From a plasmid, in sequence record NZ_CP103541.1: a DNA stretch of 64,000 nucleotides; one strand, written 5' to 3'. Each line of letters begins with the position of its first letter. The stretch's first letter is position 1. The notes under the pieces were generated by a model. The model ran no database searches. It saw only the letters and a program-made list of their open reading frames with translations, and was not told where the DNA came from. Shown here in pieces: positions 2,511 to 35,699 of the stretch. The translations under genes and the position numbers were made by a program.

Positions 2511-3481
2511 TGAAGCGTGCGCCTGTTATTCCAAAACATACGCTCAATACTCAACCGGTTGGAGATACTTCGTTATCGACACCAGCTGCCCCGATGGTGG
2601 ATTCGTTAATTGCGCGCGTAGGAGTAATGGCTCGCGGTAATGCCATTACTTTGCCTGTATGTGGTCGGGATGTGAAGTTTACTCTTGAAGTGCTCCGGGG
2701 TGATAGTGTTGAGAAGACCTCTCGGGTATGGTCAGGTAATGAACGTGACCAGGAGCTGCTTACTGAGGACTCACTGGATGATCTCATCCCTTCTTTTCTA
2801 CTGACTGGTCAACAGACACCGGCGTTCGGTCGAAGAGTATCTGGTGTCATAGAAATTGCCGATGGGAGTCGCCGTCGTAAAGCTGCTGCACTTACCGAAA
2901 GTGATTATCGTGTTCTGGTTGGCGAGCTGGATGATGAGCAGATGGCTGCATTATCCAGATTGGGTAACGATTATCGCCCAACAAGTGCTTATGAACGTGG
3001 TCAGCGTTATGCAAGCCGATTGCAGAATGAATTTGCTGGAAATATTTCTGCGCTGGCTGATGCGGAAAATATTTCACGTAAGATTATTACCCGCTGTATC
3101 AACACAGCCAAATTGCCTAAATCAGTTGTTGCTCTTTTTTCTCACCCCGGTGAACTATCTGCCCGGTCAGGTGATGCACTTCAAAAAGCCTTTACAGATA
3201 AAGAGGAATTACTTAAGCAGCAGGCATCTAACCTTCATGAGCAGAAAAAAGCTGGGGTGATATTTGAAGCTGAAGAAGTTATCACTCTTTTAACTTCTGT
3301 GCTTAAAACGTCATCTGCATCAAGAACTAGTTTAAGCTCACGACATCAGTTTGCTCCTGGAGCGACAGTATTGTATAAGGGCGATAAAATGGTGCTTAAC
3401 CTGGACAGGTCTCGTGTTCCAACTGAGTGTATAGAGAAAATTGAGGCCATTCTTAAGGAACTTGAAAAGCCAGCACCCTGA
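2510..3481 (+). CDS. sopB: SopB centromere-binding protein (ParB family)
   Basis: 323-aa ORF overlapping the sopA stop. Its position and length match F SopB, and a ParB-type HTH is visible. Confidence 0.9.
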
Positions 3482-3559
3482 TGCGACCACGTTTTAGTCT
3501 ACGTTTATCTGTCTTTACTTAATGTCCTTTGTTACAGGCCAGAAAGCATAACTGGCCTG

Positions 3560-3965
3560 AATATTCTCTCTGGGCCCACTGTTCCACTTGTATCGTCGGT
3601 CTGATAATCAGACTGGGACCACGGTCCCACTCGTATCGTCGGTCTGATTATTAGTCTGGGACCACGGTCCCACTCGTATCGTCGGTCTGATTATTAGTCT
3701 GGGACCATGGTCCCACTCGTATCGTCGGTCTGATTATTAGTCTGGGACCATGGTCCCACTCGTATCGTCGGTCTGATTATTAGTCTGGGACCACGGTCCC
3801 ACTCGTATCGTCGGTCTGATTATTAGTCTGGGACCACGGTCCCACTCGTATCGTCGGTCTGATTATTAGTCTGGGACCACGATCCCACTCGTGTTGTCGG
3901 TCTGATTATCGGTCTGGGACCACGGTCCCACTTGTATTGTCGATCAGACTATCAGCGTGAGACTA
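3560..3965. repeat. sopC: sopC centromere: about 9 tandem 43-bp repeats, each with the inverted repeat tgggaccacggtccca
   Basis: Period-43 tandem repeat ctgggaccacggtcccactcgtatcgtcggtctgattattagt, seen directly. The last two copies are degenerate. Confidence 0.85.
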
Positions 3966-4323
3966 CGATTCCATCAATGCCTGTCAAGGGCAAGTATTGA
4001 CATGTCGTCGTAACCTGTAGAACGGAGTAACCTCGGTGTGCGGTTGTATGCCTGCTGTGGATTGCTGCTGTGTCCTGCTTATCCACAACATTTTGCGCAC
4101 GGTTATGTGGACAAAATACCTGGTTACCCAGGCCGTGCCGGCACGTTAACCGGGCTGCATCCGATGCAAGTGTGTCGCTGTCGCCGGCCTCCTCACCCGG
4201 TCACGTTTCGTCGTTCCTCCTCCACGCGCTGCGGCTTCGGGGCCGCACCTGCATTCGTATGCGGTCGCCCGGTTACAGGTGCGGCACGGCCTGATGGAGG
4301 CCGCATGTGAGAGGAGAATTCCC

Positions 4324-5250
4324 ATGCCAAACTGGTGTTCGAATCGTATGTATTTTTCTGGTGAACCGGCACAGATCGCTGAGATTAAACGACTGGCCAG
4401 CGGCGCAGTCACACCGTTTTATCGCCGCGCCACAAATGAAGGTATTCAGCTGTTTCTGGTCGGAAGTGCCGGACTTCTGCAGACCACTGAAGATGTGCAG
4501 TTTGAACCGTGCCCCGGACTGACGGCTGCCGGACGTGGTGTTGTATCGCCGGAGAATATCGCGTTCACCCGCTGGCTGACACACCTGCAGAACGGTGTGC
4601 TACTGGATGAACAAAACTGCCTGATGCTGCATGAACTCTGGCTGCAGAGCGGTACTGGACAGCGTCGCTGGGAAGGATTACCGGACGATGTCAGGGATAC
4701 CATCACCGCACTTTTCACCGCAAAAAGAGGTGACTGGTGTGGCTTCTGGAGTAACGAGGATGTATCGGTGTGGTGGAACCGTCTGTGTGACAACGTACTG
4801 CCGGAAAAAACCATGCCGTTTGACCTGCTGACGGTTCTGCCCACCCGCCTGGATGTTGAAGTGAATGGCTTTAACGGTGGTGTTCTGAACGGTGTTCCTT
4901 CTGCATATCACTGGTATACGGAACAGTATGGCGTGAAGTGGCCTGTGGGGTATGAGGTGAATATCAGTAGTCAGGGAGACAACTTCATTCAGGTTGATTT
5001 CGACACGCCGTGGTGTCAGCCGGAAAGCGACGTTATTGCAGAATTAAGCCGCCGTTTCAGCTGCACGCTGGAGCACTGGTATGCCGAACAGGGCTGTGAT
5101 TTCTGTGGCTGGCAGTTGTATGAGCGCGGAGAGCTCGTTGATGTGCTGTGGGGGGAACTGGAATGGTCTTCCCCGACAGATGACGATGAGCTGCCGGAAG
5201 TCACCGGACCTGCGTGGATAGTCGACAATGTGGCGCATTATGGCGGATGA
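4324..5250 (+). CDS. hypothetical conserved plasmid protein (308 aa, Cys/Trp-rich)
   Basis: Long ORF. ATG at 4324 is preceded by gagaggag; the GTG start in the track at 4279 is less likely. A terminator follows. Confidence 0.5.
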   Translation: MPNWCSNRMYFSGEPAQIAEIKRLASGAVTPFYRRATNEGIQLFLVGSAGLLQTTEDVQFEPCPGLTAAGRGVVSPENIAFTRWLTHLQNGVLLDEQNCLMLHELWLQSGTGQRRWEGLPDDVRDTITALFTAKRGDWCGFWSNEDVSVWWNRLCDNVLPEKTMPFDLLTVLPTRLDVEVNGFNGGVLNGVPSAYHWYTEQYGVKWPVGYEVNISSQGDNFIQVDFDTPWCQPESDVIAELSRRFSCTLEHWYAEQGCDFCGWQLYERGELVDVLWGELEWSSPTDDDELPEVTGPAWIVDNVAHYGG

Positions 5251-5264
5251 AGTATGACGGAGAC

Positions 5265-5290
5265 GGGCGGGAAACCGCCCGTTTCTTTTC
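5265..5290 (+). terminator. rho-independent terminator (gggcgggaaaccgcccgtttctttt)
   Basis: Perfect GC hairpin gggcgg-gaaa-ccgccc followed by a T-run, 15 bp after the stop of the 4324-5250 ORF. Confidence 0.5.
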
Positions 5291-5633
5291 CGACAAAGGA
5301 TGTCGCCGTGCTCCTCTTTTTACTGCGCCGGCTGACGCGGCGCGGCATAAACGCTGCCTGTGGTCAGTGTCCCGCGTCCGGCGGGCACGGGACGGGCGCT
5401 TTTACCGCTCCCGGCTGGCGTCGGTGACAGTGTACGCCAGCCCGTCGCCCTTTTCTGATGAACGCCCTTCAAGCAGCTTTCGCGGCATAACCTTGCCGTC
5501 AGAAAGACGACGGCTGCGGTATTCCACGGTCGGCCTGACCCGTTACCGGACGCGGTGAACAGCCCACAGGCAGCGGGGAACGGGCACCACAGGGGTGCCC
5601 TCCCGGTGCCCTCTGTAAGAGAAGGAGTTTCGT

Positions 5634-9308: not shown

Positions 9309-9502
9309 TACAGGGCAGGCGGTGGAGGCCGCCTGTCAGCCCGCGCGAAAACCCTGGCAGGCTGACGCCTGCCGGAAGGGAAGCGGGCCACGCTGGCGCG
9401 TCGCCCGTTACCCTTCCCGTTTGTGATGTGTCCGGAATGTTTTTTTCTGATGGTATGACCCTGTTCCTGTTGTTGTTGTTGTTCTTTTCTCTGCTGCCCT
9501 GA

Positions 9503-10090
9503 TTCTGACTACTGCAGTGTTGTCCTGTCTGCCTGCGCACCTTCGGCTCCCGGCTGCCTGGCGGCATCCGGTCGTCAGGCCCGACTCCGACAGGCAGCTG
9601 CTGGCGCACCCGCCAGTCTCCGCCGAACCCGCTGGCGCGGTTTCGGGCTGTCGCTACGGTCCGATGCGTGAACCCCGGGCTTGCAGCGACCGAACGGTCG
9701 CGCCGCCTCTGTCGCGCCGTGGCCTGCGCTCCCGGCATCCCGGCAAAAGGCCGCCGGGATGTAAGGCGCAACGCCGTTTCGCGCACGCGCTCTCCGTCGT
9801 TGCGGCGGGTCCCTGCTCATTGCCTGCCGGGTGCCACACACCCGTATGAGTCCCTGTCGCCGGGGGCTGATACAGCCACAACCTGCCGCACTGACTGTCC
9901 AGGGTAAATGAACAGCCCACAAAATTTTTTACCCAAAACCCGGTAAAAAATTTTGCGTTCTGCCCCGGACAGGTGCGTCAGGCCGTGGCAGTGATGCCCC
10001 TTGCGGCGAAGGTTCTCAAACGGGTGAAGTTCATACCACAGGGAATACAGCAGCAGGTTCCCGCGAAACGTCAAAACCGCGGCTCCCGAA
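9503..10090 (+). promoter_or_regulatory. Frpo/ssi-like GC-rich repeat copy A (putative single-strand promoter for leading-region genes)
   Basis: About 570 bp, over 90% identical to 16535-17100 and to 33185-33616. Ends ...gttcccgcgaaacgtcaaaaccgcggctcccgaaactcaa. Sits upstream of + strand leading genes. Confidence 0.6.
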
Positions 10091-10336
10091 ACTCAACGGG
10101 TGATGTTCTTTAAAAATCAGGATTTATTTCAGGCTCCGGCAATACGCATTTATTTGTTCTGTCAGTCATCCGGCTGGCAGGTAATGAGAACGCAGGAACA
10201 GAAGGAGGAAAACACCGGAAAGCGTCAGATGCAGATATGAAAAAAGCAGGTCAGGGACCTGCTTAATCCACGCCGTAGAAATCGCCGCAATCGATTTTCA
10301 CGGCTTCACTAACCTGTGTCATAAGGAGTTTCATTT

Positions 10337-10567
10337 ATGACAGTAAGTATTGTTTCACCTTCCGCAGCGGCTGTAAAGCCCCGCCGTCATCCCCGTTTCA
10401 GACGCGAAGACATCCCCGCGCCGGAAATTGACCCCGTGCTGAAAGCCTTCGGGCGACACATAGCCCGGAGTTTTCACCGGGGGCGTGGTGTACACATCCC
10501 CGCCATGAAAAACACGGCCTTCGGGCAGGTGCTCCGCACACTCGAACTGAAACGCGCTTTTAACTGA
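10337..10567 (+). CDS. hypothetical basic small protein (76 aa), first gene after Frpo copy A
   Basis: Good RBS aaggag 7 nt before the ATG. Arg-rich. Confidence 0.45.
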   Translation: MTVSIVSPSAAAVKPRRHPRFRREDIPAPEIDPVLKAFGRHIARSFHRGRGVHIPAMKNTAFGQVLRTLELKRAFN

Positions 10568-12027: not shown

Positions 12028-12591
12028 ATGCACAGTCAGTTAAGGGAGCGTATCCGGCTGATGCGCGCAAGGCTGGACAATGCCAGGCCGGTTATCGAGA
12101 TTCCGGCAGAATTTCAGCTTTTTGTGACACCTGCCCCGGTCTGCGATCGCCTGGTGACGCTGGCGGAAATCAGCAACCGTGATCACATTCTGGAACCCTC
12201 TGCCGGCACCGGAGCCATACTGCGGGCGATTCGGGATACCGCGCCGGGAGCCATGTGTGATGCGGTGGAGATTAACAGCGGACTGGTCCGGTATCTGCGG
12301 GAAAATTTTAACGGTGTCAGGGTGCAGCATGGTGACTTCATGGAATGGCAGCCGACGCAGTATTACAGCCGTATTATTATGAATTCGCCGTTCAGCAACG
12401 GGCAGGATATCCGGCATATCCTGCGGGCCTTTTCCCTGTTGCGTCCGGGGGGCGTGCTGGTCGCTGTCTGTCTGAACGGGCCACGCCAGCAGGAGAAGCT
12501 GTTACCGTTTTCTGACGTCCGCGAGGAACTGCCGCGCGGCACGTTTGCTTATACCCGTGTTCCGACGATGATTATTCGTCTGCGGGCCTGA
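12028..12591 (+). CDS. small SAM-dependent methyltransferase (187 aa), putative orphan DNA methyltransferase
   Basis: SAM-binding motif ILEPSAGTGAIL and motif-IV-like IMNSPF. No cognate endonuclease nearby. Confidence 0.6.
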   Translation: MHSQLRERIRLMRARLDNARPVIEIPAEFQLFVTPAPVCDRLVTLAEISNRDHILEPSAGTGAILRAIRDTAPGAMCDAVEINSGLVRYLRENFNGVRVQHGDFMEWQPTQYYSRIIMNSPFSNGQDIRHILRAFSLLRPGGVLVAVCLNGPRQQEKLLPFSDVREELPRGTFAYTRVPTMIIRLRA

Positions 12592-12770
12592 AGACGCCGG
12601 GCAGGCGGGAGGATAAATGCCCGTCTGCCCGCGCCGGGAAAAGACCGCGCGCCGGTGGCGCTGAAAGGGGCCGCGCTCACGCGCCGCCCCTTTCATTACG
12701 CGGACGTTCTGATGGGGGCTTCTGTTTCTTCATGCCTGTCATTTGTCTGTTACTGATGATGTTGTTGTTC

Positions 12771-12833
12771 CTGCTACTGCTACTGCTACTGCTACTGCTA
12801 CTGCTACTGCTACTGCTACTGTTCTTCTTTTTC
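12771..12833. repeat. hexanucleotide microsatellite (CTGCTA)x10
   Basis: Seen directly. Sits in a pyrimidine-rich tract that also precedes the other Frpo copies (9440-9500, 33030-33090). Confidence 0.9.
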
Positions 12834-12959
12834 CTGCTGCTCTGATTCTGACTACTGCAGTGTTGTCCTGTCTGCCGGGTCGGGTAGCAGCGGCACATTG
12901 CTGCGCCGCCGCCCCCTAAGAACGGAGCGTGCGAGTTTCCCCGCACTCCGCTCAAGCCT

Positions 12960-13746
12960 TTATAAGTGCTTTCGGTGAGCACCGGCTTCCCTGCTGTGTA
13001 ACTGTCGGTGGCAGTTCGGATGTAACAACTCGAGATTGGTCAGTTCGTCACTGCCGCCCATAACTTTCCTGATCCGGTGATGTATATTCCATCCGGTCTG
13101 GTTGGTTATGGGTTGTCCGCACTGCGGACAGTGTTTCCCCTGCCTCTTCCAGAGTTGAACTACTGTCTTCATCTTCTTTGATTTGCCTTTCCAGATTAGA
13201 TCCAGACGACGTTCAAAGTAGATTTCCATTCCGGGGGTGTATGGTGTTGCTTCGCCTTTGATTTTTATATGGCGCTTTATCGGTGTTTCCATTGCCCGGA
13301 AGAGAGTCAGAATTTTCCCTTCCGGGGTTATGGCTTTAAAGATCCAGCGCCTGCCTTCAAAGGAGAAGTATCGTCCGGCGATCCACCGCAATCCTTTTCG
13401 GGGGTGCCTTCTTACACACCATCGCCATATAGCTCGCCAGATTTGGGTGTCGACATAATTAAATGTTTCTTTCGCCACGACGTGTCGGTGATAGGTAGCC
13501 CATCCCCGGATTACCGGGTTTAGCTGGCCTATCAGTTTCCATGCCGGGAGCGTCGGATTGCGTTTAATTATTTCTCTGACTTTACAGAGGAAGTTCTTCA
13601 GGTTTTTCTTCGACGGTTTAATCAGCATTTTACCGTTGTACTTCCTGACGTTCTGCCCTAAAAAGTCGAAGCCTTTATCTATATGTGTAATCGCGGTTTT
13701 TTCTTCCGACAGTTCCAGCCCTCGTTCGCGCATGAAAGCTGCAATC
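12960..13746 (-). pseudogene. group II intron RT/maturase, C-terminal part (X/maturase and HNH domains: HPNCHRQLH)
   Basis: ORF 12960..13931 on the minus strand. True continuity is broken at the IS629 boundary 13746/13747. Confidence 0.7.
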
Positions 13747-13788
13747 TGAACCGCCCCGGGTTTCCTGGAGAGTGTTTTATCTGTGAAC

Positions 13789-14679
13789 TCAGGCTGCCAG
13801 ATCATCGTTTCCGATGGAAGCATAATAAGCTTTTTCTGCTTCTGCCGGAGGAGTATGGCCCAGCCTTTCCAGCAATCGTCGATTGTTATACCAGTCCACC
13901 CACGTGAGTGTGGCCAGTTCCACTTCTGCACGGTTTTTCCAGCTCTTACGGTGTATTACCTCCGCTTTGTAAAGACCATTGATGCTCTCCGCCATCGCGT
14001 TGTCATACGAGTCGCCTGTACTTCCTGTTGATGCCAGTAATCCGGCTTCCTTAAGCCGCTGTGTGTAGGCCAGCGATACATACTGAGAACCTTTATCACT
14101 GTGATGGACCGTGCCGGACGGTCGACGGGCCCATAACGCCTGCTCCAGTGCATCCAGCACGAATGTCGTTTCCATGGACGATGAGACCCGCCACCCCACG
14201 ATGTATCCGGCAAACACATCAATGATGAACGCCACATAGACGAAGCCCCGCCATGTGCTGACGTAAGTAAAATCAGCCACCCACAGCTGGTCAGGTCGTT
14301 CTGCCACGAACTGACGGTTTACGCGGTCGCCTGCGGCAACGGCTTTCCGGCTGATGGTCGTACGGACCTTTTTACCCCGGAGAACACCGGCAAGTCCCAT
14401 AACCGCCATGAGACGTGCCACAGTGCATCTGGCCACTCTGATACCTTCCCGTAACAACTGACGCCAGACTTTACGCACACCGTATACCTTGTGATTTTCA
14501 TCGTATACGCGCTGTATCTCTTTCTTCAGCCAGTCATCGCGCTGCGCACGGGCACTGCGTTTATCCGGATGATGTCGCTGTTGCTGACAGTGGTAATACG
14601 TTGACGGGGCAATATGCAGTTCGCTGCATAGCGGTCCGACCCCGTACTGCTCACGCAGCTTATCCAGCAGTGGCATCAT
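13789..14679 (-). CDS. IS629 OrfB (DDE transposase)
   Basis: 296-aa DDE-domain ORF overlapping orfA by 4 nt (the -1 frameshift arrangement of the IS3 family). Confidence 0.8.
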
Positions 14680-15002
14680 TTTTTCCAGAGGCGGTCGAAC
14701 TCCGCCTTCGCAAAATAAGCGGAAGCCTGGCGAAGGATATCGTTACTGCGGCGCAGTTCACGATTTTCACGTTCCAGCTCTTTCAGACGCTGACGTTCAG
14801 CGGTGGTGAGCCCTCCATCACCGCCCCCGGTATCCCGCTCATGCTGGCGAACCCAGACACGCAGAGTCTCCGGCGTACAGCCAATCTTTGGAGCAATGGA
14901 ACAAATTGTCGCCCATTGTGAGTCATATTCGCTCTGACTTTCCAGAACCATACGGACTGCCCGTTGACGGACTTCGGGGGAAAAACGAGTATTTTTAGTC
15001 AT
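14676..15002 (-). CDS. IS629 OrfA (transposase N-terminal, HTH)
   Basis: 108-aa ORF of IS3-family orfA type. Confidence 0.8.
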
Positions 15003-15056
15003 CCTGTTTACCTCTTTCTCAGGAAGTTTAGTCTCCAGGATTCCCGGGGCGGTTCA

Positions 15057-15940
15057 ATCAGTGGTCTGACCTCATTTTCCAGCAATTCACGGGAGCTGCC
15101 TGAACAGATGAAATCATCAGCATATCTCACATAATTCACCTGGTGCTTTGCACTGTGATAACCACTTTTCCTGAACGTTTGCATCAGTTCCTTCTCCAGT
15201 CCGTCCAGAGCCATGTTGGCGAGAACAGGGGATATGATGCCTCCCTGCGGTGTCCCGCTGTTCGTATGGTTAAACACGCCTCTTTCCATGTAACCTGCTT
15301 TCAACCATTTTTTAAGCAGTCTCCTGTCCATCGGAATATGGGAAAGCAGCCAGTCATGGCTGATGTTATCGAAACACCCTTTAATATCGCCCTCCAGTAT
15401 CCATTTGGGCGATACTTTCTGGCTCATCCGCAGAAAAATGGACTCAATGGCGTCATGCGTGCTGCGCATTGGTCTGAAACCATAGCTGTTATGGTCAGCA
15501 GTGGTCTCGGATACGGGTTCCAGAGCCAGCAGCCACAGTGCCTGCATGGCCCGGTCCCTCATTGTGGGTATGCCCAGCGGTCGCGTTTTGCCGTTTGATT
15601 TTGGGATATGTATTCGCCGTAGTGGCTGTGGCCTGTAACCACACAGATTCAGGCTGCATATTCCTTCCCATTTCTCCTTCGGTGTGTGCCATATTTTTCC
15701 GTCAATACCGGGTGTCCTTTTACCGGTATTTTCAGTTACACGCCTGACAGCCACGGCTTTGCCGGAGAATGAGCGGGTGAGGATGCGCTGTAGTTCTCTG
15801 ACCTGCCGCCATTGTTGCTGTCGGGTTGCCTTTGCAATCCGTAACTGTAGCTTTCGCACCCGGGCATGGCATGCTTTCCAGTCTATGGTGTGCCAGCCTG
15901 TCGGGTGGGGTATCGTGGACACACTGATGTGTGTATTCAT
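15057..15940 (-). pseudogene. group II intron reverse transcriptase, N-terminal part (RT domains 0-7, YADD motif)
   Basis: ORF 15008..15940 (minus) with RPLGIPTMRDRAMQ and VRYADDFI motifs, interrupted by IS629. Confidence 0.75.
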
Positions 15941-16534
15941 CTCGCTGATATCCTTTTGACTGCTTTACAGCTTTTCATGCAATTAAAGACCAGACGGAAG
16001 TCTGCCCGCTTTCGCGTCGGGGAACCTGCCCCGTATCCCGGTCATTACAACCGGGCATTTGCTTTTTCCGTCCTCCTCTGCCCGCACCGCCTACAGTGTT
16101 CCTTACGGTTCACCTGCCTGTAAGGCAGCGATACGGGTTTACCAGGTTCCGCTTAACATACAGAGGGTCAGGGCGGGTTCTGTCTCTTCACCGGGGGTCT
16201 CTGCGCCCATGTGCTCCCTGTGCGCGAGGTAGCAACCGGACCCCGTACCTTTTGGTTCAGGCCTGTCAGCATCTTTGGCCTGTTGCCGATAACGGTGTTT
16301 ATCAACAGTTCACATGTGTTAACCCTTCTGACCAGCCTTGCTCTCCTGCCACATGATGCTTGCAGCAAGGTAAAGCCCCTCACGGGGCTTTACCCGGGCT
16401 GACGCCCGGCTCTCGTTGTCCCGGGAGCTTCAGACCCCGCCGTTGCCGGCAGCGCCTGTCCCGGTAGGCTACAGCTAATGGGATAGCTGGTTTTATCAAT
16501 GTAAAACAATACGTTAAGCGACTTCCTGTCGCAC

Positions 16535-17100
16535 GCGCACCTTCGGCTCCCGGCTGCCTGGCGGCATCCGGTCGTCAGGCCCGACTCCGACAGGCAGCTG
16601 CTGGCGCACCTGCCAGTCTCCGCCGAACCCGCTGGCGCGGTTTCGGGCTGTCGCTACGGTCCGATGCGTGAAAACCCCGGGCTTGCAGCGACCGAACGGT
16701 CGCGCCGCCTCTGTCGCGCCGTGGCCTGCGCTCCTGGCATCCCGGCAAAAGGCCGCCGGGATGTGAGGGGCAACGCCGTTTCGCGCACGCGCTCTTCGTC
16801 GTTGCGGCGGGTGCCTGCCCGTTGTTGTGTCCGGTGCCATACACCTGTTTAAGCCCCTGTCGCCGGGGGCTGATACAGCCACAACCTGCCGCACTGACTG
16901 TCCAGGGTAAATGAACAGCCCACAAAATTTTTTACCCAAAACCCGGTAAAAAATTTTGCGTTCTGCCCAGGACAGGTGCGTCAGGCCGTGGCAGTGATGC
17001 CCCTTGCGGCGAGGGTTCTCAAACAGGTGATGGTGAATACCAGAGGGAACAAAAGGCAGGTCCCCGCAAAACGTCAAAACTGCGGCTCCCGAAACTCAAC
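16535..17100 (+). promoter_or_regulatory. Frpo/ssi-like repeat copy B, with the intron inserted at its left edge
   Basis: Near-identical to 9527-10090. Confidence 0.6.
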
Positions 17101-17601
17101 AGCTACCGTGTTCTGTCAAGAAAAAATCGCTTAAATTCAGTCGTACAGCCCTTAAGTACTGCCAGCAGGCTTGTCAGTACCAAGTTTCCGATACTGCGCG
17201 GCTACGCTAACGGGGTTAAAAGGGCTTACTTATACTACATCATCGCTGAAAGCTTGTATGGTTTCGCGGAACAGGGAGTAACAGGAGAATATTCACTCTC
17301 TACCGGCTAACAGTTAGCTTAATTGCAGTAACTGGTAACCAACTGCTAGAAAAATTCACCATGAATAATAATTGTGCTGATTACCTGCAATTATTGTAGT
17401 GAAATTTCTGTTCATATTTTTTCGCTAGCGATGTCTTGTTTGAGAAAAAACACTATTTGTTGAATAGTTTGATTCTGGTATTTGGAGTCTTTTAAAGGGG
17501 GATTCTATATGGATATCACTTTTTATATGTTGTAAATAATGCCGCTGTAGAAGAACAACGGCAAATGAAGGGGGGTATTGTTACAATAATCTTATTTGTC
17601 T

Positions 17602-18144
17602 CTATTTTTTATCCGAATCAGGTAGCAATTTAAAAGCTTTCAATATGGGGTAAAGTGTTTCATTCTCAAAGTTTTTTGCTAAATCAGTGAGGTGTTTTTT
17701 GATGTCATTGCTGGTAATGAGCTCAATTATGTGAGGAGTCCATTTGATATTATTGTCAATCAACACTTCAGAGTCCCAACTAGATGGTTTATAAAAAGCC
17801 ATGCAAGATAAAATAACTAGTCTCGTCTTCGATAAGAATGGTAATATATATAGTTTGGTACTGTTTATGTTAGGGTGTTTTGATTTTGCCTGCACAGTAA
17901 TTAAGTTATATGAGCAAGTTAGTAATGACTCAATACTAACAGGCGATAAGTAATATTCTGTAACCCACTTGTAATTGTCATCATCATCATAATCAATCCA
18001 CGTATTTATCCTGGCTAAAGTTGTTGCTAGGCCTCTGTTTTTTAGTTTCTTTACAGTCCTTTCCTTTTTCTCAGATTTGGCTTTTACGAATAAATCATCA
18101 TTATTTTTATCAACCCACTCAGCCAGGAGAGGCAATTTAGGAAC
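17602..18144 (-). pseudogene. AT-rich orphan ORF fragment, 5'-truncated by IS2
   Basis: 189-aa track ORF whose first codons lie inside the IS2 terminal repeat. GC is visibly low (about 30%). No homology recognised. Confidence 0.35.
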
Positions 18145-18155
18145 TGGATTTGCCC

Positions 18156-19061
18156 CTATATTTCCAGACACCTGTTATCACTTAACCCATTACTGGCCTG
18201 CTGCCGCAGATATTCCCGTGGCGAGCGATAACCCAGTGCACTATGCGGATGCCATTCGTTATAATGCTCGAACGCCTCTGCAAGGTTCTTTGCTGCCGTT
18301 AACCCGTCTGGTTTGGGCATGATACTGATGTAGTCACGCTTTATCGTTTTCACGAAGCTCTCTGCTATTCCGTTACTCTCCGGACTCCGCACCGCCGTGT
18401 TCTTCGGTTCAAGTCCCAACATCCGGGCGAACTGGCGTGTTTCATTAGCCCGGTAGCATGAACCATTATCCGTCAGCCACTCCACTGGAGACGACGGAAG
18501 ATCGTTGCCGAAGCGGCGTTCCACCGCTCCCAGCATGACGTCCTGTACTGTTTCACTGTTGAAGCCGCCGGTAGTGACCGCCCAGTGCAGTGCCTCACGA
18601 TCACAGCAGTCCAGCGCGAACGTGACACGCAGTCTCTCTCCGTTATCACAGCAGAACTCGAACCCGTCAGAGCACCATCGCTGATTGCTTTCTTTCACGG
18701 CCACTCTGCCTGTATGTGCCCGTTTCGATGGCGGTACAGCAGGTTTTCGCTCAAGCAACAGCGCATTCTGGCGCATGATCCGGTAAACACGTTTGGCATT
18801 GATCGCAGGCATACCATCAAGTTCTGCCTGTCTGCGAAGCAGCGCCCATACCCGACGATAACCATACGTGGGCAGCTCTCCGATAACATGGTGTATACGG
18901 AGAAGCACATCCGTATCATCAGTGTGACGACTGCGGCGGCCATCCATCCAGTCATCGGTTCGTCTGAGAATGACGTACAACTGCGCACGCAACACCCGGA
19001 GACAACGGCTGACTAAGCTTACTCCCCATCCCCGGGCAATAAGGGCGCGTGCGCTATCCAC
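18156..19061 (-). CDS. insD: IS2 InsD transposase (DDE)
   Basis: 301-aa [26 protein letters not shown], recognised as IS2 InsD. Confidence 0.85.
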
Positions 19062-19384
19062 TTTTTTGCACGCCCGTATTCAACGGCTTCTTTAAGGAGT
19101 TCATTTTCCATCGTTTTTTTGCCGAGCAGGCGCTGGAGTTCTTTAATCTGCTTCATGGCAGCAGCAAGTTCAGAGGCAGGAACGACCTGCTCTCCTGCGG
19201 CCACAGCAGTAAGACTTCCCTCCTGGTATTGCTTGCGCCAGAGAAATAACTGGCTGGCTGCCACACCGTGTTGCCGGGCAACAAGGGAGACCGTCATTCC
19301 CGGTTCAAAACTCTGCTGAACAATTGCGATCTTTTCCTGTGTAGTACGCCGTCTGCGTTTCTCCGGTCCTAAGACATCAATCAT
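19019..19384 (-). CDS. insC: IS2 InsC
   Basis: 121-aa [28 protein letters not shown], recognised as IS2 InsC. Confidence 0.85.
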
Positions 19385-19475
19385 CTGCTCTCCAATGACT
19401 AGTCTAAAAACTAGTATTAAGACTATCACTTATTTAAGTGATATTGGTTGTCTGGAGATTCAGGGGGCCAGTCTA

Positions 19476-20233
19476 TCCTCCCGCTGGAAATGCTGGAAAT
19501 TCTGCGCCGCATAGAAAAACGTGGCTCGCTGGAAAAACTGCGTAAGGTCCGCCAATACTGTAATCAGATTTTTCGTTATGCTATCGCCACCGGACGAGCC
19601 ACTGTCAATCCGGCATCTGAACTGACCAGTACGCTGGCGGCACCAAAAGCTGCGCATTTCCCCCACCTGAGAGCAGATGAGCTCCCTGTTTTTCTCCGGA
19701 AGCTCGCTGAATATCATGGCAGTCCTGTTACCCGCATGGCGACAAATCTTCTGCTTCTGACGGGTCTCAGAACCATTGAGCTACGGTCCGCTGAATGGTC
19801 AGAAATTGATTTTGATAATGCCCTGTGGACAATCCCTGAAAGCCGCATGAAAATGCGACGTAAACATGTCGTACCACTGTCACGACAGGCCACTGACATT
19901 CTGCTGCAGCTCAAAACTTTCTCCGAGCAATACCGACTGGTTTTTCCGGGACGTTGTGATATCAACAAGCCAATGAGCGAAGCCAGCATCAATATGGTGC
20001 TCAAACGTATCGGTTACGATGGCAGGGCAACCGGTCATGGTTTTCGTCACACCATGAGTACCATTCTGCACGAACAGGGCTTTAATTCTGCCTGGATTGA
20101 AATGCAGTTAGCTCATGTGGATAAAAATTCCATCAGGGGTACCTATAATCATGCCCTGTATCTCGATGGTCGCCGTGAAATGATGCAATGGTACGCTGAC
20201 TACATTGATTCACTTTCCAGCCAGGAGAGTTAA
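19476..20233 (+). pseudogene. int: P4-type tyrosine integrase, 5'-truncated by IS2 (C-terminal catalytic domain only)
   Basis: Begins exactly at the IS2 end. Motifs HGFRHT and LAH..Y fit a tyrosine recombinase C-terminus. Confidence 0.7.
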
Positions 20234-20317
20234 TTACACTTTGTCCTGAAATTATTCTCACAATCAATAACCTTTCCCTCTGATCTTACAGATCAGAGGG
20301 ATTCCGTTAACTTACAA

Positions 20318-20358
20318 TAAGTGATATTGGTTGTCTGGAGATTCAGGGGGCCAGTCTA
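20318..20358 (+). repeat. solo 41-bp copy of the IS2 left terminal repeat
   Basis: taagtgatattggttgtctggagattcagggggccagtcta is identical to 19435-19475. Confidence 0.6.
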
Positions 20359-20390
20359 ACGGTCTACTATAATAATTAGCAGGAGATAAT

Positions 20391-21401
20391 ATGTCACTTA
20401 AGGCGATTGCCACTGCACTCGGAGTTTCTGTCACCACTGTCAGTCGGGCTCTTGGAGGCTATGCAGATGTGTCAGCTTCCACCCGTGCACGGGTGGAAGC
20501 TGAAGCTCGTCGACGCGGCTACCGTCCTAATACTCAGGCAAGAAGACTCAAAACCGGTAAAACCGATGCTGTCGGTCTGGTTTATCCTGGACGTGATGTG
20601 CCATTTAACAGTGGTGTTTTTATGGATATGGTCAGTTGCATCAGCCGGGAACTTGCTCACCATGATATTGACTTACTACTGATAGCTGATGATGAGCATG
20701 CCGATTGCCACAGCTATATGCGGCTTGTTGAAAGTCGCAGGGTTGATGCTCTCATCATTGCACACACTCTGGATGACGATCCCCGTATCACACACCTTCA
20801 TAAAGCAGGTATTCCATTTCTGGCTCTTGGTCGGGTACCATCTGGTCTGCCCTGTGCGTGGTTTGACTTTGATAATCATGCCGGGACTGGACAGGCAACC
20901 CAGAAACTGATTGCTTTGGGACATAAACGTATTGCATTGTTGAGTGAAGACACTTCACATACCTATGTTATTGCAAGACGTCAGGGATGGCTTGATGCAC
21001 TGAATGAGCATGAACTGGAAGATACATGGCTGCGGCTGGTTTCTCCCACACGGCGAGCAGGATATCAGGCCGTGATGGAGTTAATGTCACTACCGATACC
21101 ACCAACAGCTATTATTACTGACAATGATCTGAGTGGAGATGGTGCTGCCATGGCGCTGCAGTTGAGCGGTCGTCTTTCAGGAAAAGCTGCGGTATCTCTG
21201 GTTGTATATGATGGTTTGCCACAGGACAGTATTATTGAGCTGGATGTAGCTGCAGTTATTCAGTCAACACGAAGCCTCGTTGGTCGCCAGATTTCCGAGA
21301 TGATATATCAGATAATTACTGATTCATCATCAAAACCACTACAGGTTGTCTGGAACCCGGTATTTTATCCGGGAAAGACGATTCATTCTCCTTGCTCCTG
21401 A
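20391..21401 (+). CDS. rafR: RafR raffinose operon repressor (LacI family)
   Basis: 336-aa LacI-family protein with N-terminal HTH MSLKAIATALGVSVTTVSRAL. Followed by rafA, rafB and rafD as in the pRSD2 raf operon. Confidence 0.75.
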   Translation: MSLKAIATALGVSVTTVSRALGGYADVSASTRARVEAEARRRGYRPNTQARRLKTGKTDAVGLVYPGRDVPFNSGVFMDMVSCISRELAHHDIDLLLIADDEHADCHSYMRLVESRRVDALIIAHTLDDDPRITHLHKAGIPFLALGRVPSGLPCAWFDFDNHAGTGQATQKLIALGHKRIALLSEDTSHTYVIARRQGWLDALNEHELEDTWLRLVSPTRRAGYQAVMELMSLPIPPTAIITDNDLSGDGAAMALQLSGRLSGKAAVSLVVYDGLPQDSIIELDVAAVIQSTRSLVGRQISEMIYQIITDSSSKPLQVVWNPVFYPGKTIHSPCS

Positions 21402-21496
21402 TTTTTTTATCCAGCTCACATATCCGAAACGTTTTGGTTGATACCCGAAACGTTTCGGATCAACAGTAAGGCATCCCTGAGAAAGGAGAATGTCTT

Positions 21497-23623
21497 ATGG
21501 TTTCAAAGTACTGCAGACTGAGCAGTCCTCGCTCTGATTTAATTATTAAAACCCATCCACATGCAGAAATTATCTGGTGGGGCTCTGCACTGAAACATTT
21601 CTCACCGGATGACTGTGCCAGCCTGGAAAGACCGGTTGCGAATGGTCGTCTGGATATTGATACGCCACTGACACTGATGGCTGAAAATGCCCTGGGACTT
21701 TTTAGCTCTCCGGGACTGGAAGGACACAGGAATGGGCTGGATTCATCTCCTGTTTTTTATACAGTTGACGTGGAACATACCGAAAACACTCTGAGACTTA
21801 CCAGTGAAGATTCGGTAGCCGGCCTGCGTCTGGTCAGCGAGCTGGTGATGACGCCATCAGGAATTCTGAAAGTTCGTCATGCACTGACCAACCTCAGAGA
21901 GGGGGACTGGCAGATAAATCGTTTCGCCATCACTTTACCTTTAGCGGAGCGTGCGGAAGAAGTCATGGCTTTTCACGGACGCTGGACTCGTGAATTTCAG
22001 CCGCACAGGGTACGTCTCACTCATGATGCTTTTGTTCTGGAAAATCGCAGAGGGCGGACATCTCATGAGCATTTTCCGGCGCTGATTGTCGGCACGCCAG
22101 GCTTCTCGGAACAACAGGGAGAGGTATGGGCTGTGCATCTGGGGTGGAGTGGAAATCACCGTATGAGATGTGAGGCAAAAACTGACGGCAGGCGTTACGT
22201 TCAGGCTGAGGCTCTGTGGATGCCGGGTGAGAAGGCTCTCAGGAAGAATGAAACCCTGTACACCCCGTGGCTATATGCCTGCCACTCTGCGGATGGCCTG
22301 AATGGAATGAGTCAGCAATACCATCGTTTTTTGCGTGATGAAATTATCCGTTTCCCTGAGCAAAAACCCCGCCCCGTACATCTCAATACCTGGGAAGGTA
22401 TTTATTTCAATCACAATCCTGATTACATCATGCAGATGGCTGAGCGTGCAGCAGCACTGGGCGTTGAACGTTTCATTATTGATGATGGCTGGTTTAAAGG
22501 ACGTAACGATGACCGCGCGGCTCTGGGCGACTGGTATACCGATGAACAGAAATACCCGAACGGGCTGATGCCGGTTATTAAACATGTGAAATCTCTCGGT
22601 ATGGAATTTGGCATATGGGTTGAGCCGGAAATGATTAACCCGGATTCTGACCTGTTTCGTCTTCATCCTGACTGGGTATTGTCAATGCCTGGATATTCCC
22701 AGCCAACCGGAAGATATCAGTATGTTCTTAACCTGAATATTCCTGAGGCCTTTGCTTACATTTATGAACGTTTCTCATGGTTACTGGGAGAACATCCGGT
22801 TGATTATGTGAAATGGGACATGAATCGTGAGCTTGTACAGGCAGGGCATGAAGGCCGTGCGGCAGCAGATGCACAGACCCGTCAGTTCTATCGATTGCTT
22901 GATCTCCTCCGTGAACGTTTTCCACATGTTGAGTTTGAGTCCTGTGCTTCCGGTGGGGGGCGTATTGACTTCGAAGTCCTGAAACGCACACACCGGTTCT
23001 GGGCATCTGACAATAATGATGCCCTGGAGCGCTGCACCATACAACGTGGCATGAGTTACTTTTTCCCTCCTGAGGTGATGGGGGCACATATTGGCCATCG
23101 CCGCTGCCATGCAACTTTCCGACAGCACAGCATCGCTTTTCGTGGGCTGACAGCATTGTTCGGCCATATGGGGCTGGAGCTGGATCCGGTGGCCGCAGAT
23201 GCGAAGGAATCTGACGGTTATCGCCGGTATGCCTTGCTCTATAAAGAATGGCGACAACTGATTCATACAGGTGTTCTCTGGCGTGTGGATATGCCAGATC
23301 CTTCGATACAGGTTCAGGGAGTCGTCAGCCCTGATCAGTCTCAGGCACTTTTTATGATCAGCCAGCTTGCAATGCCGGATTACACCTTACCAGGCATACT
23401 TCGTTTTCCCGGTCTGGCGGCGGAAGTGCGTTACCGGCTTCGGGTTATTGATCACCCGGACCTCCAGGTGGTCGGTGAAGGCGGTCATACCATGCGCAAA
23501 TTACCTGTCTGGATGAATCAGAGCCTTGAGGCCAGTGGTGAATGGCTGGCACAGGGAGGGATTCAGCTCCCCGTACTGGATCCGGAGAGTGCGATTTTGA
23601 TAGCACTTGAAAGAGCTGTGTGA
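21497..23623 (+). CDS. rafA: alpha-galactosidase RafA (GH36)
   Basis: 708-aa protein. RBS aaggag lies 7 nt before ATG 21497. Confidence 0.8.
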   Translation: MVSKYCRLSSPRSDLIIKTHPHAEIIWWGSALKHFSPDDCASLERPVANGRLDIDTPLTLMAENALGLFSSPGLEGHRNGLDSSPVFYTVDVEHTENTLRLTSEDSVAGLRLVSELVMTPSGILKVRHALTNLREGDWQINRFAITLPLAERAEEVMAFHGRWTREFQPHRVRLTHDAFVLENRRGRTSHEHFPALIVGTPGFSEQQGEVWAVHLGWSGNHRMRCEAKTDGRRYVQAEALWMPGEKALRKNETLYTPWLYACHSADGLNGMSQQYHRFLRDEIIRFPEQKPRPVHLNTWEGIYFNHNPDYIMQMAERAAALGVERFIIDDGWFKGRNDDRAALGDWYTDEQKYPNGLMPVIKHVKSLGMEFGIWVEPEMINPDSDLFRLHPDWVLSMPGYSQPTGRYQYVLNLNIPEAFAYIYERFSWLLGEHPVDYVKWDMNRELVQAGHEGRAAADAQTRQFYRLLDLLRERFPHVEFESCASGGGRIDFEVLKRTHRFWASDNNDALERCTIQRGMSYFFPPEVMGAHIGHRRCHATFRQHSIAFRGLTALFGHMGLELDPVAADAKESDGYRRYALLYKEWRQLIHTGVLWRVDMPDPSIQVQGVVSPDQSQALFMISQLAMPDYTLPGILRFPGLAAEVRYRLRVIDHPDLQVVGEGGHTMRKLPVWMNQSLEASGEWLAQGGIQLPVLDPESAILIALERAV

Positions 23624-23685
23624 AGAGAGGTACGGAGCCTCAGCTCCGTCCTGTTTCTCAATATTATCCCGTGAGGGTAAGAATA

Positions 23686-24963
23686 ATGAATTCTGCAAGT
23701 ACGCATAAAAATCCCGATTTCTGGATTTTCGGTCTGTTCTTCTTTCTCTACTTTTTCATCATGGCAACCTGTTTTCCGTTTTTGCCTGTATGGCTGTCCG
23801 ATGTGGTCGGGCTGAGTAAAACGGATACAGGTATAGTCTTTTCATGTCTTTCTCTGTTTGCCATCAGTTTCCAGCCATTGCTTGGGGTCATATCAGATCG
23901 CCTGGGACTGAAAAAAAACCTGATCTGGAGTATCAGCCTGTTACTGGTATTTTTCGCCCCCTTTTTTTTATATGTATTTGCGCCCCTGCTGCGCTTCAAT
24001 ATCTGGGCAGGCGCACTGACTGGCGGTGTTTTTATTGGTTTTGTGTTTTCTGCAGGTGCCGGAGCTATTGAAGCTTATATAGAGCGGGTCAGTCGCAGTC
24101 GTGGATTTGAATACGGTAAAGCGAGGATGTTCGGGTGTCTGGGCTGGGCGTTATGTGCGACTATGGCTGGAATGCTTTTTAATGTCGATCCTTCTCTGGT
24201 TTTCTGGATGGGGTCAGGAGGCGCATTATTGTTGCTTCTTCTGTTGTTTCTGGCGCGCCCCAGTACCAGCCAGACGGCAATGGTTATGAATACACTGGGT
24301 GCCAATTCTTCCCTGATTTCGACCAGAATGGTCTTCAGCCTGTTTCGCATGCGTCAGATGTGGATGTTTGTTCTCTACACGATTGGTGTGGCCTGTGTCT
24401 ATGATGTATTTGATCAGCAGTTTGCCACATTTTTTCGTTCATTCTTTGACACTCCTCAGGCAGGAATAAAAGCATTCGGATTTGCTACCACTGCGGGGGA
24501 GATTTGTAATGCCATTATCATGTTCTGTACACCATGGATAATTCATCGCATTGGTGCCAAAAATACCCTGCTTGTTGCGGGGGGAATTATGACCATCCGC
24601 ATTACCGGTTCTGCTTTTGCCACCACCGCGACAGAAGTGGTGATTCTGAAAATGCTTCACGCTCTTGAAGTTCCATTTTTGCTGGTTGGGGCGTTCAAAT
24701 ATATTACGGCAGTGTTTGACACCCGACTGTCAGCGACCGTTTATTTAATAGGTTTTCAGTTTTCCAAACAACTTGCTGCAATACTTCTCTCTACCTTTGC
24801 CGGCCACCTGTATGATCGTATGGGATTCCAGAATACGTATTTTGTGCTCGGGATGATTGCTCTGACTGTTACCGTGATATCAGCTTTCACGCTGAGTTCT
24901 TCCCGCGGGAGCGTACACCCTTCTGTAGAAAAAGCCCCTGCAGCGCATTCGGAGATTAACTGA
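23686..24963 (+). CDS. rafB: raffinose permease RafB (LacY-family MFS)
   Basis: LacY-like N-terminus NPDFWIFGLFFFLYFFIMATCFPFLPVWL. Start taken at ATG 23686 (track start 23620). Confidence 0.8.
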   Translation: MNSASTHKNPDFWIFGLFFFLYFFIMATCFPFLPVWLSDVVGLSKTDTGIVFSCLSLFAISFQPLLGVISDRLGLKKNLIWSISLLLVFFAPFFLYVFAPLLRFNIWAGALTGGVFIGFVFSAGAGAIEAYIERVSRSRGFEYGKARMFGCLGWALCATMAGMLFNVDPSLVFWMGSGGALLLLLLLFLARPSTSQTAMVMNTLGANSSLISTRMVFSLFRMRQMWMFVLYTIGVACVYDVFDQQFATFFRSFFDTPQAGIKAFGFATTAGEICNAIIMFCTPWIIHRIGAKNTLLVAGGIMTIRITGSAFATTATEVVILKMLHALEVPFLLVGAFKYITAVFDTRLSATVYLIGFQFSKQLAAILLSTFAGHLYDRMGFQNTYFVLGMIALTVTVISAFTLSSSRGSVHPSVEKAPAAHSEIN

Positions 24964-26393
24964 TGAAACAGCGTCTTGCTTTGGCACAGTCCGCCCTTGA
25001 AAAACTTTGCGCACGTCGTGGTAATGCCTGGTACCCGATTTTTCATCTGGCTCCACCTGCCGGCTGGATGAATGATCCAAATGGCCTTATTTACTTCAAT
25101 GGGCGTTACCATGCGTTCTTCCAGCATCATCCTGCAAGCGCATATCAGGGGCCAATGCACTGGGGGCATGCCACCAGTACCGACATGTTGCACTGGCAAC
25201 ACGAACCTGTCGCGCTGGCACCCGGAGATAAATATGATCGTGATGGCTGTTTTTCAGGGAGTGCCGTGGATGATGATGGCGTGCTATCACTTATTTATAC
25301 TGGTCATATTTGTCTCGAAGATCGTGGTAATGACAGCATTATCCGTGAAGTACAGTGTCTGGCTACCAGTCATGATGGTATTCACTTTGAGAAGCAGGGC
25401 TGTGTGCTGACACCTCCGGAAGGTATCATGCATTTCCGTGATCCCAAAGTCTGGCACGAAGAAGGCTCCTGGTGGATGGTCATTGGTGCCCGGGACGCTT
25501 CTGACAATGGGCAAGTTCTGTTGTATCGCGGGACATCTTTGCGGGACTGGCATCTGGAGCATGTTCTCGCTCATTCCGCAGCCGGAGAAAGTTATATGTG
25601 GGAATGCCCCGATTTCTTCAGGTGTGGTAATTTTCACTGGCTGATGTTCTCACCACAGGGGATGACCCCTTCCGGTTATCGGTTCCGTAACCTTTTTCAG
25701 AGCGGTGTGTTGGCAGGGAGCTGGAAGCCTGGTTCTGTCTTTGCGCTGAAAGGGGGATTTGAAGAGCTGGATTATGGTCATGACTTTTATGCTCCACAGT
25801 CCATGCTGGCTGAGGACGGCAGGCGTATCATTATGGCATGGATGAATATGTGGGATTCACCCGTGCCCACCCGCAGTGAAGCCTGGGCAGGATGTCTGAC
25901 GCTGCCCAGAGAGGTTTTTGAGCGCGATGGCCGGCTGTGCCAGCGACCTGTGCGTGAAGTCGAATCTCTGCGCAGAAAATGCCAGCCATTATCCCCTGTA
26001 AGGTTACAGGGTTTGCAATTACTGACCGAAAATGTACAGGCCGCAGAATTATTGGTGACGTGGCATACGGTTGACAGTCATGCGGAGCACTATGGCGTCC
26101 GCCTTGGAGACGGTCTGCGACTTTATGTGGATAATCAGGCCGGACGACTGGTACTGTGGCGCTATTACCCTGAGGAAGGGCTGGATGGTTACCGCAGTGT
26201 TGAACTTCCTGATACAGAATATCTGACTCTTCGTATTTTCCTGGATCGTTCATCTGTTGAAGTGTTTGTTAACGATGGTGAGGCAACCTTATCAAGTCGT
26301 ATTTATCCGCAAGCGGACTCGAGACAATTATCGTTATATGCCGCTCATGGCGATGCGATATTAACTAATGGCACTTTATGGATGCTGACCTGA
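24963..26393 (+). CDS. rafD: sucrose-6/raffinose invertase RafD (GH32)
   Basis: GH32 motifs WMNDPNG and RDP. Confidence 0.8.
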   Translation: MKQRLALAQSALEKLCARRGNAWYPIFHLAPPAGWMNDPNGLIYFNGRYHAFFQHHPASAYQGPMHWGHATSTDMLHWQHEPVALAPGDKYDRDGCFSGSAVDDDGVLSLIYTGHICLEDRGNDSIIREVQCLATSHDGIHFEKQGCVLTPPEGIMHFRDPKVWHEEGSWWMVIGARDASDNGQVLLYRGTSLRDWHLEHVLAHSAAGESYMWECPDFFRCGNFHWLMFSPQGMTPSGYRFRNLFQSGVLAGSWKPGSVFALKGGFEELDYGHDFYAPQSMLAEDGRRIIMAWMNMWDSPVPTRSEAWAGCLTLPREVFERDGRLCQRPVREVESLRRKCQPLSPVRLQGLQLLTENVQAAELLVTWHTVDSHAEHYGVRLGDGLRLYVDNQAGRLVLWRYYPEEGLDGYRSVELPDTEYLTLRIFLDRSSVEVFVNDGEATLSSRIYPQADSRQLSLYAAHGDAILTNGTLWMLT

Positions 26394-29082: not shown

Positions 29083-29097
29083 GTTGGAGTCATTACC

Positions 29098-35690: not shown

Positions 35691-35699
35691 TTTTCCACC

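Follow-up and report, generated by a model that had tools for sequence, protein, structure and literature searches.

A known group II intron near a Frpo-like element of an F-type plasmid, split by an IS629-type insertion sequence

The plasmid sequence record NZ_CP103541.1 was analysed over a stretch of 64,000 nucleotides (the window; positions are counted from its first letter). In the leading region of this plasmid a group II intron, itself split by an IS629-type insertion sequence, lies next to a Frpo-like copy, a putative single-strand promoter. The locus raises the question of what guided the intron to this place. An earlier note on the same sequence proposed that the hairpin of a single-stranded DNA (ssDNA) promoter had served as a new kind of target. 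The evidence described below points to a more regular event. With a probability of about 0.9, the element is a site-specific group II retroelement that occupies its regular homing site, found by base pairing, and that was later broken by the IS629-type element. The observation is real but ordinary, and it is already known. Both the intron and its insertion site have been described (PMC8765060, PMC6052338), and the 2,343-bp intron is a lineage marker in the pHN7A8-type IncF backbone (Hawkey et al. 2022, PMC8765060; PMC6052338).

The intron and the insertion sequence within it

The minus strand from 12879 to 16534 is a group II intron, as judged from Rfam matches and from the reading of its ends. 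The intron, the insert and the adjoining 3' exon comprise the following features:

12879..16534, minus strand: whole group II intron, 3656 nt, made up of the 2343-nt intron, a 1310-bp insertion sequence and a 3-bp duplication (from its ends, Rfam and published junctions)
15941..16534, minus strand: 5' ribozyme part, domains I-III and the start of IV (RF02012 match and alignment to EcI5 domain I)
15057..15940, minus strand: N-terminal fragment of the intron-encoded protein, about codons 1-294, with RVT_N and most of the reverse transcriptase (RT) domain; open reading frame (ORF) 15008..15940, minus strand
15057..15059, no strand: right copy of the ATC target duplication (window read and alignment to the intact intron)
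13747..15056, minus strand, same orientation as the intron: complete IS629-type insertion sequence of the IS3 family, 97% identical over 1310 bp to IS629 of pO157, with the same ends
13744..13746, no strand: left copy of the ATC target duplication (same evidence as for the right copy)
12960..13746, minus strand: C-terminal fragment of the intron-encoded protein, with the end of the RT domain, the maturase and the HNH endonuclease; ORF 12960..13931, minus strand
12879..12955, minus strand: domains V and VI, with the 3' end ...CUACCCGAC (full-length RF00029 match, 60.1 bits)
12843..12878, minus strand: 3' exon, the short arm of a repeat, with its position +1, a C, at 12878

The Rfam model for domains D1-D4 (RF02012) matches 16341-16490 on the minus strand with 119.7 bits. 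The score of the RF00029 match compares with a gathering score of 40, and both the catalytic domain V and the bulged A of domain VI are present; a lack of these domains, which the earlier note had named as the point on which its intron would fall, is not what was found. The class of the ribozyme was judged from the Rfam models and the domain I alignment to EcI5 rather than from a full six-domain secondary structure. The intron begins with GTGCGAC at 16534 and ends with ...CUACCCGAC (...CCCGAC) at 12879, in agreement with the group II consensus (5' GUGYG, 3' AY). The GG at 12877-12878 belongs to the 3' exon. This boundary follows from the published intron-naive site, ...CTGTCTGCCGG|GCGCACC... 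(PMC8765060, Text S1), together with the Rfam alignment. The span given previously, 12877-16534, is therefore correct at its upper end and 2 nt off at its lower end.

In intact copies domain IV of the intron encodes a protein of 555 residues, annotated by PGAP as ltrA (WP_012372796.1), in which a domain search identified RVT_N, RVT_1, the group II maturase domain GIIM and an HNH endonuclease. The earlier description as a group II intron with an HNH-bearing RT thus agrees with the RF02012 and RF00029 matches and with the RT, maturase and HNH domains. The protein is 56% identical to that of EcI5, an intron matched by the same D1-D4 model at 133.4 bits, and its closest solved structure is the T.el4h RT in a retroelement complex (PDB entry 6ME0, E=1e-178). 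By these matches the intron is classed as an endonuclease-bearing relative of EcI5, of IIB1/CL type.

Comparison with known Escherichia coli introns, as the earlier note had advised, did not identify the intron with any of three candidates. EcI5 lies at pO157 36274-37998, at another site and on the other strand, and its protein has 574 residues and the 56% identity given above. E.c.I11 was rejected because the ltrA of pEC958 (first 50 kb, including the leading region) is a 633-residue gene inside ssb and belongs to a different intron, which is apparently the E.c.I11 named in the paper on that plasmid. Kl.pn.I5 was rejected because its ltrA in pK245 encodes 495 residues. No Zimmerly-database name for the window intron was found in the literature searched.

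The protein-coding frame of the window intron is split by the insertion sequence. An intact copy reads uninterrupted GCAATCAGTGG at the break point, where in the alignment the window reads GCAATC, then the insert (TGAACCGCC...GGCGGTTCA), then ATCAGTGG; the insertion is clean. Both ends of the insert read TGAACCGCCCCGGG..., its orfA (with HTH_Tnp_1) and orfB (with HTH_21 and rve) are intact in a domain search, and the IS3-type frameshift pseudoknot ALIL is matched at 14605-14721 with 120.2 bits (Rfam). A length of about 1310 bp, inverted repeats, a 3-bp duplication, orfA and orfB with a -1 frameshift and at least 95% DNA identity, as expected of IS629, are all found. The 97% is a mean column identity, for which the IS629 annotation of pO157 Sakai served as reference in place of the ISfinder type sequence. 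The alignment to the intact intron bears out the claim that a complete IS629-type element with an ATC duplication splits the RT frame. It also agrees with the view that the intron is immobile by itself, its own protein having been lost through the split.

After removal of the insertion sequence the window intron shows 0 differences from five intact copies (L002, L011, L012, L023 and L037 of the sequences compared), and the insertion is therefore recent. Within PLSDB the disrupted allele occurs only in CP137937.1, a record 99.9% identical to the window; in RefSeq the disrupted junction occurs in two further plasmids, NZ_CP166436.1 and one of strain CAVP814. In CP077216.1 (L003, 4060-8600) the intron is intact, and an IS3-family transposase gene matching the IS629 of the window lies about 900 bp past the intron 5' end. 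This position comes from annotated coordinates, and the gene would represent an independent insertion in the same neighbourhood.

The homing site and its recognition

Masai and Arai reportedly described the F plasmid element Frpo, or ssiD, as a single-strand promoter in 1997. It is treated as such by Couturier et al. 2023 (PMC9849209). With the F ssiD sequence from the supplement of PMC11541004 as query, three copies were located in the window:

9762-10094, minus strand: Frpo/ssiD copy A, 78.5% identity to F ssiD
16766-17097, minus strand: Frpo/ssiD copy B, 85.5% identity to F ssiD over 337 aligned columns; adjoins the intron and is separate from it
33280-33629, minus strand: Frpo/ssiD copy C, 97.2% identity to F ssiD

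The three matches identify the minus strand as the transferred strand, in agreement with the orientation of traJ/FinP, which at 36.6 kb is directed away from the leading region. As stated previously, the intron thus has its sense on the transferred strand and runs antisense to the genes of the leading region.

Copies A and B lie within a longer repeat of about 620 bp, and the intron site is situated at the far, outer end of this repeat, 231 bp past the ssiD homology in copy B and 227 bp past it in copy A. Copy C does not have the site. The insertion point is 16534|16535, the ssiD homology starts at 16766 and the base of the hairpin lies at 16775, so that the insertion is not inside Frpo. When the reconstructed empty transferred strand is folded as DNA, the long Frpo hairpin is predicted at 16775-17075, and a 705-nt stretch with copy B has a minimum free energy of -178 kcal/mol with a z-score of -8.5. 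The intron site is 240 nt away from the base of the long hairpin, within a separate small hairpin, GCCGGGAGC...GCGCCCGGC, that is predicted for the transferred strand of the canonical allele. An insertion at the edge of a Frpo-like copy, as claimed before, is thus correct for the 620-bp repeat and incorrect for both the ssiD/Frpo segment and the long hairpin. The promoter hairpin is not the target of the intron.

To understand how the intron may find its site, the exon-binding sites (EBS) in domain I were compared with the intron-binding sites (IBS) in the 5' exon, which are arranged as follows:

16535..16548, minus strand: 5' exon recognition bases, with IBS1 GTGCGC (-6 to -1) at 16535-16540, IBS2 GCCGA (-13 to -9) at 16543-16547 and IBS2a A (-14) at 16548

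EBS2 is UCGGC at intron positions 246-250 (window 16285-16289), and EBS2a is a U at 16291, two bases upstream. Both align in domain I to positions of EcI5 that were mapped by experiment (EBS2 at nucleotides 253-257, then A258). EBS1, GCGCAC, at intron positions 310-315 (window 16220-16225), occupies the loop of the hairpin that follows; within the intron's first 420 nt, which correspond roughly to domain I, no other 6-mer is perfectly complementary to exon positions -6 to -1. All positions form Watson-Crick pairs with the 5' exon (6/6 for EBS1-IBS1, 5/5 for EBS2-IBS2 and 1/1 for EBS2a-IBS2a). The EBS1 of EcI5 could not be located by simple complementarity in the homologous loop, and the assignment of EBS1 therefore rests on perfect complementarity and on covariation, not on homology to EcI5.

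This covariation is seen in a 98.6%-identical intron on two metagenome contigs (L016, QZMH01000896.1, 3830-6120, and L019), where the EBS1 loop reads GGACAC and the adjoining exon GTGTCC. Compensating changes occur also in the stems that flank the loop, and it is the patch around the EBS1 hairpin that has diverged. The pair looks like a natural retargeting of the intron together with its site.

A second homing site, within a protein-coding gene, is found on chromosomes. In O-antigen clusters of O8/O9 type, identical intron copies interrupt rfbK (phosphomannomutase) in its 3' part, on the rfbK sense strand (NZ_CP081192.1 and NZ_CP127493.1, at about 3001-5343 of the extracted loci), and PGAP annotates the piece downstream of the intron as a partial phosphomannomutase. 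The rfbK exon keeps GTGCGT, GCCGG (wobble-compatible), the A at -14 and the C at +1, and differs at other positions. The 3' exons of occupied sites are variable: CCGGCAG..., CAATAAA..., CAACAAA..., CTGAACG..., CGTACAG... and AGGCAGA.... The EBS assignments are supported by the covariation, by the retention of the pairing bases in rfbK and by the free variation of the 3' exon. Taken together, the sequences indicate that the target is recognised by sequence, through pairing of EBS1, EBS2 and EBS2a with the 5' exon. A requirement for the small GCCGGGAGC...GCGCCCGGC hairpin was considered and rejected, because this hairpin is lost at the AGGCAG allele and in rfbK, both of which hold identical introns. 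DNA structure thus appears not to be needed for insertion.

The empty form of the site is common. The two flanks, joined to an 80-mer, occur with 100% identity in many plasmids, which confirms that they are contiguous in related plasmids, and with at least 99% identity in at least 2,070 PLSDB records and in 1,934 complete-genome E. coli records. A survey of empty and occupied sites, which the earlier note had recommended, covered 5,426 complete E. coli genomes. Of the records in this set, 2,361 (from 2,110 genomes) matched across the empty junction, 402 (315 genomes) had the occupied 5' junction, and 453 (328 genomes) contained the intron itself, at 530 places on plasmids and 49 on chromosomes. 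By these record counts roughly nine in ten of the intron-bearing records have the intron at this site, and in most records that contain the site it is empty. In p45407_1 both copies of the repeat carry the intron.

In a scan of species-representative genomes only six matches were obtained, mostly from metagenome-bin contigs of unrelated taxa, and these were used for their flanks. They are exact matches to the intron 3' end in bins assigned to Oscillibacter, Erysipelotrichaceae, Ferruginibacter and Hyphomicrobiales and in a Streptomyces assembly (L005-L010). Five of the six have E. coli-type plasmid flanks, and the group probably represents misbinned or contaminating plasmid DNA. One of them (L010) has a different 3' exon, CGTACAGCACC....

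The second copy of the site in the window is empty:

9497..9561, minus strand: paralogous empty homing site, junction 9534|9535, upstream of Frpo-like copy A (9762-10094)

Its only difference is GCC-T-GCGC in place of the canonical GCC-GG-GCGC, by which position +1 on the intron strand becomes A instead of C. Resistance of copy A on account of this A was considered and rejected. A search with the hypothetical occupied junction gave exact matches, and NZ_CP173461.1 holds the identical intron at exactly that allele (3' exon AGGCAGACAGG). The site at 9534|9535 can thus be used by the intron but is unoccupied in the window. That it stands empty is in keeping with the lost intron protein, without proving immobility.

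A likely history and its alternatives

In the proposed course of events, the homing site is a short sequence at the outer end of the 620-bp repeat of F-type leading regions, upstream of the Frpo-like promoters. The intron would find it through RNA-DNA pairing of EBS1 with IBS1, EBS2 with IBS2 and EBS2a with the A at -14, probably aided by protein-DNA contacts analogous to those of EcI5 (PMC8643678), and would enter by reverse splicing and target-primed reverse transcription, as expected from its family. Conjugative plasmids carry this conserved, non-coding site, frequently in two copies, which may make it a landing place of low cost and a means for the intron to spread. The intron always has the polarity of the transferred strand, opposite to the leading-region genes, and lies outside the promoter hairpin. 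Later transposition of an IS629-type element into the RT coding region, with its 3-bp ATC duplication, cost the intron its own protein. The ribozyme parts are untouched, so the window copy should be mobile only with protein supplied by another copy. Indirect evidence of mobility comes from identical introns at more than one kind of site and from the occupation of both repeat copies. In addition, a putative group II intron is reported on a resident IncF plasmid and on p1ESBL, with new junctions in two replicate populations that are situated in the leading region of an IncI plasmid, beside the ssi3 operon (PMC10104558).

Several points weigh against this interpretation or temper it. Five distinct 3' exons begin with C at position +1, whereas one, beside an identical intron, begins with A, and the EBS3-IBS3 contact was not located; evidently this pairing is not strict. 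Five or six metagenome copies have a 5' exon ending in TGGGCG, which does not pair with EBS1. On the contigs concerned (L018, L020, L023, L027, L029 and L034) the exon ends ...CCGAAGTGGGCG with EBS1 unchanged, and in several of them the 3' exon is CAATAAAAGACAGCC..., so that homology to the window stops exactly at the insertion point. Some copies thus occupy non-cognate sites, possibly through recombination between copies or later mutation. Splicing and mobility of the window intron are predictions from sequence, and the intron in PMC10104558 may be a different element. A scan for consensus promoters of the intron, which is antisense to the leading-region genes, was uninformative (2 matches against 1.0 expected).

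The intron might alternatively favour incoming single-stranded plasmids. Its ribonucleoprotein (RNP) would reverse-splice into the transferred strand, and synthesis primed at Frpo or ssi would provide the primer for complementary DNA. It is indeed the top strand of the homing site that is transferred, complementary-strand synthesis from copy A would, judged by the coordinates, reach site B from the 3'-exon side, as the priming geometry requires, and the new junctions in PMC10104558 arose in a conjugative IncI plasmid in intron-bearing cells (if the intron is the same). Nevertheless, this route is unlikely. The HNH endonuclease makes ssDNA or replication primers unnecessary, the chromosomal rfbK is a homing site as well, and a site-specific element has a fixed orientation, so that the agreement in strand is a 1-in-2 coincidence. 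Small odds are likewise given to the proposal that the homing site in the ssi/Frpo repeat was selected for the transferred strand, with reverse splicing of the RNP into ssDNA in the new host and Frpo-primed copying. If true, it would mean a conjugation-coupled spread of the intron between co-resident and incoming plasmids.

It is improbable that the insertion was retained for an effect on leading-region expression, through a block of read-through into the Frpo-B unit or through an antisense RNA, instead of being neutral and selfish. The intron lies exactly between the end of the leading-region operon (12839) and the next Frpo-like element (16766), as such a role would suggest. However, conjugative plasmids include both carriers and non-carriers of the intron (PMC8765060), the site is mostly empty according to the survey, and the operon downstream of copy B has already been replaced here by IS2 and a raffinose-utilisation block.

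Least probable is recognition of DNA structure, with homing into the Frpo hairpin as a new class of structured target: the site does share the 620-bp repeat with a Frpo-like element and can fold a small local hairpin in its canonical allele, but it lies well outside both the ssiD homology and the long hairpin, Frpo copy C (97% identical to F ssiD) is without a site, EBS2 and an endonuclease domain set the intron apart from the structure-seeking IIC type, identical introns occupy rfbK and the AGGCAG allele, where the small hairpin is lost, and EBS1 covaries with IBS1. This explanation is largely refuted, and the idea of a promoter hairpin as a new kind of target gives way to that of a IIB intron that pairs with its site.

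A pairing-guided retroelement at its regular site has little discovery value in itself, since the intron, its size, its insertion point and its pattern of presence and absence in IncF plasmids are published and used as lineage markers, and an insertion sequence inside an intron is routine plasmid decay. A modest use lies in the exact coordinates and the 2-nt correction of the boundary. The homing site is part of the Frpo-bearing repeat, so that more than 2,000 complete E. coli genomes offer it, frequently at two or more places on a plasmid. Together, the defined exon-binding sites, the covariation and the rfbK site would permit testing or re-targeting of the intron like EcI5, and the IS629-disrupted allele can be used as a marker of a small plasmid lineage. 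A published link between the homing site and the Frpo-bearing repeat was not found; a full-text search for "group II intron" and "Frpo" matched only PMC10104558, in which the intron junction adjoins the ssi3 operon and homing-site logic is not discussed.

Surroundings and comparison with known systems

According to the annotation of CP137937.1, the genes upstream of the intron belong to the leading region (antirestriction, DUF1380, DUF3560, methyltransferase), and the order from there is intron, Frpo copy B, IS2, raffinose-utilisation block, IS1, IS150, hok, copy C and oriT/traM. In the window (17100-33280) the ssb-psiB-psiA operon is absent downstream of copy B. Its place is taken by IS2 and the raffinose block, with genes for a LacI-type regulator, an alpha-galactosidase, a transporter of the major facilitator superfamily (MFS), a GH32 hydrolase and a porin, followed by IS1A, an ion-channel gene and IS150. 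Because IS2, the raffinose block, IS1 and IS150 replace the ssb-psiB operon, copy B has lost the genes that it is expected to drive, and insertions make the whole region a patchwork.

A short ORF at 33425-33631, inside copy C, is annotated as 'single-stranded DNA-binding protein'. Short ORFs annotated in the same way occur in pEC958 (L013, 15748-16017 and 23805-24010) at or near Frpo/ssiD-like repeats, as judged by position only. These ORFs look like annotation artefacts of the repeat and not like ssb genes. A hexanucleotide tandem repeat, (GCTACT)n, lies just before site B (12775-12832), inside a small annotated ORF (12588-12839), and in copy A the matching position (9466-9480) is taken by a (GTT)n run. 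The copy number of the GCTACT repeat in 'yddA' is variable (PMC6052338). Just downstream of copy A, Rfam identifies AS-pc01, the antisense RNA of pHK01, at 10241-10342 on the minus strand, which points to an antisense transcript running in the direction of the Frpo repeat and of the empty homing site. Beside copy B, the Rfam search of the window showed nothing comparable.

At least three group II introns that differ from one another are found within the leading region of F-type plasmids or beside it: the window intron, EcI5 and the intron in pEC958 ssb. Of these, the pEC958 intron (L013, 16017-18682) and EcI5 (L004, pO157, 35665-38071) are both sense to the leading-region genes.

The window intron agrees in length and in the intron-side halves of its junctions with the 2,343-bp intron published for pHN7A8 (FII-33) and for further IncF plasmids. 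The exon halves of the published intron-left and intron-right signatures differ from the window at allelic bases only, and the insertion point and core of the published naive site (CTGTCTGCCGG|GCGCACC) equal the window flanks joined at 12878|16535. Without its insert, the window intron is identical to copies that encode WP_012372796.1. Unlike the pHN7A8-type intron, the window copy bears the 1310-bp IS629-type insertion in its RT gene.

EcI5 (E.c.I5) of pO157, an experimentally characterised mobile intron of type IIB1/CL1 (PMC8643678), shares with the window intron the D1-D4 model, the protein architecture, the positions of EBS2 and EBS2a and the A at -14, and likewise sits on an F-type plasmid. 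It differs in sequence, in its exon-binding sequences and in its site, which lies between sopB and the leading region, on the strand of the leading-region genes. The T.el4h / Th.e.I3 RNP (PDB entries 6ME0 and 6MEC) contains the closest solved relative of the RT and recognises DNA likewise through EBS1, EBS2 and EBS2a (PMC8643678). It is cyanobacterial and has a different target, and the solved structure belongs to it and not to the window intron.

The insertion sequence shares with IS629 of pO157 its 1310 bp, terminal repeats, orfA and orfB, frameshift pseudoknot and 3-bp duplication; it is about 3% diverged from this copy and hence an isoform, within a group of related named elements that includes IS1203 and IS3411. 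Copy B resembles F Frpo/ssiD in its 85.5% identity, its location on the transferred strand and its predicted long hairpin. It is a putative promoter, the intron lies outside it, and its usual downstream operon is missing here.

IIC and attC-type introns recognise DNA stem-loops (terminators, integron attC), lack EBS2 and an endonuclease domain, and insert just after the hairpin. None of these three traits, i.e., absence of EBS2, absence of an endonuclease domain and insertion 3' of a stem-loop, is found in the window intron. What it has in common with them is its insertion in non-coding DNA near a structured element; it differs in having EBS2 and HNH and in also occupying hairpin-free sites.

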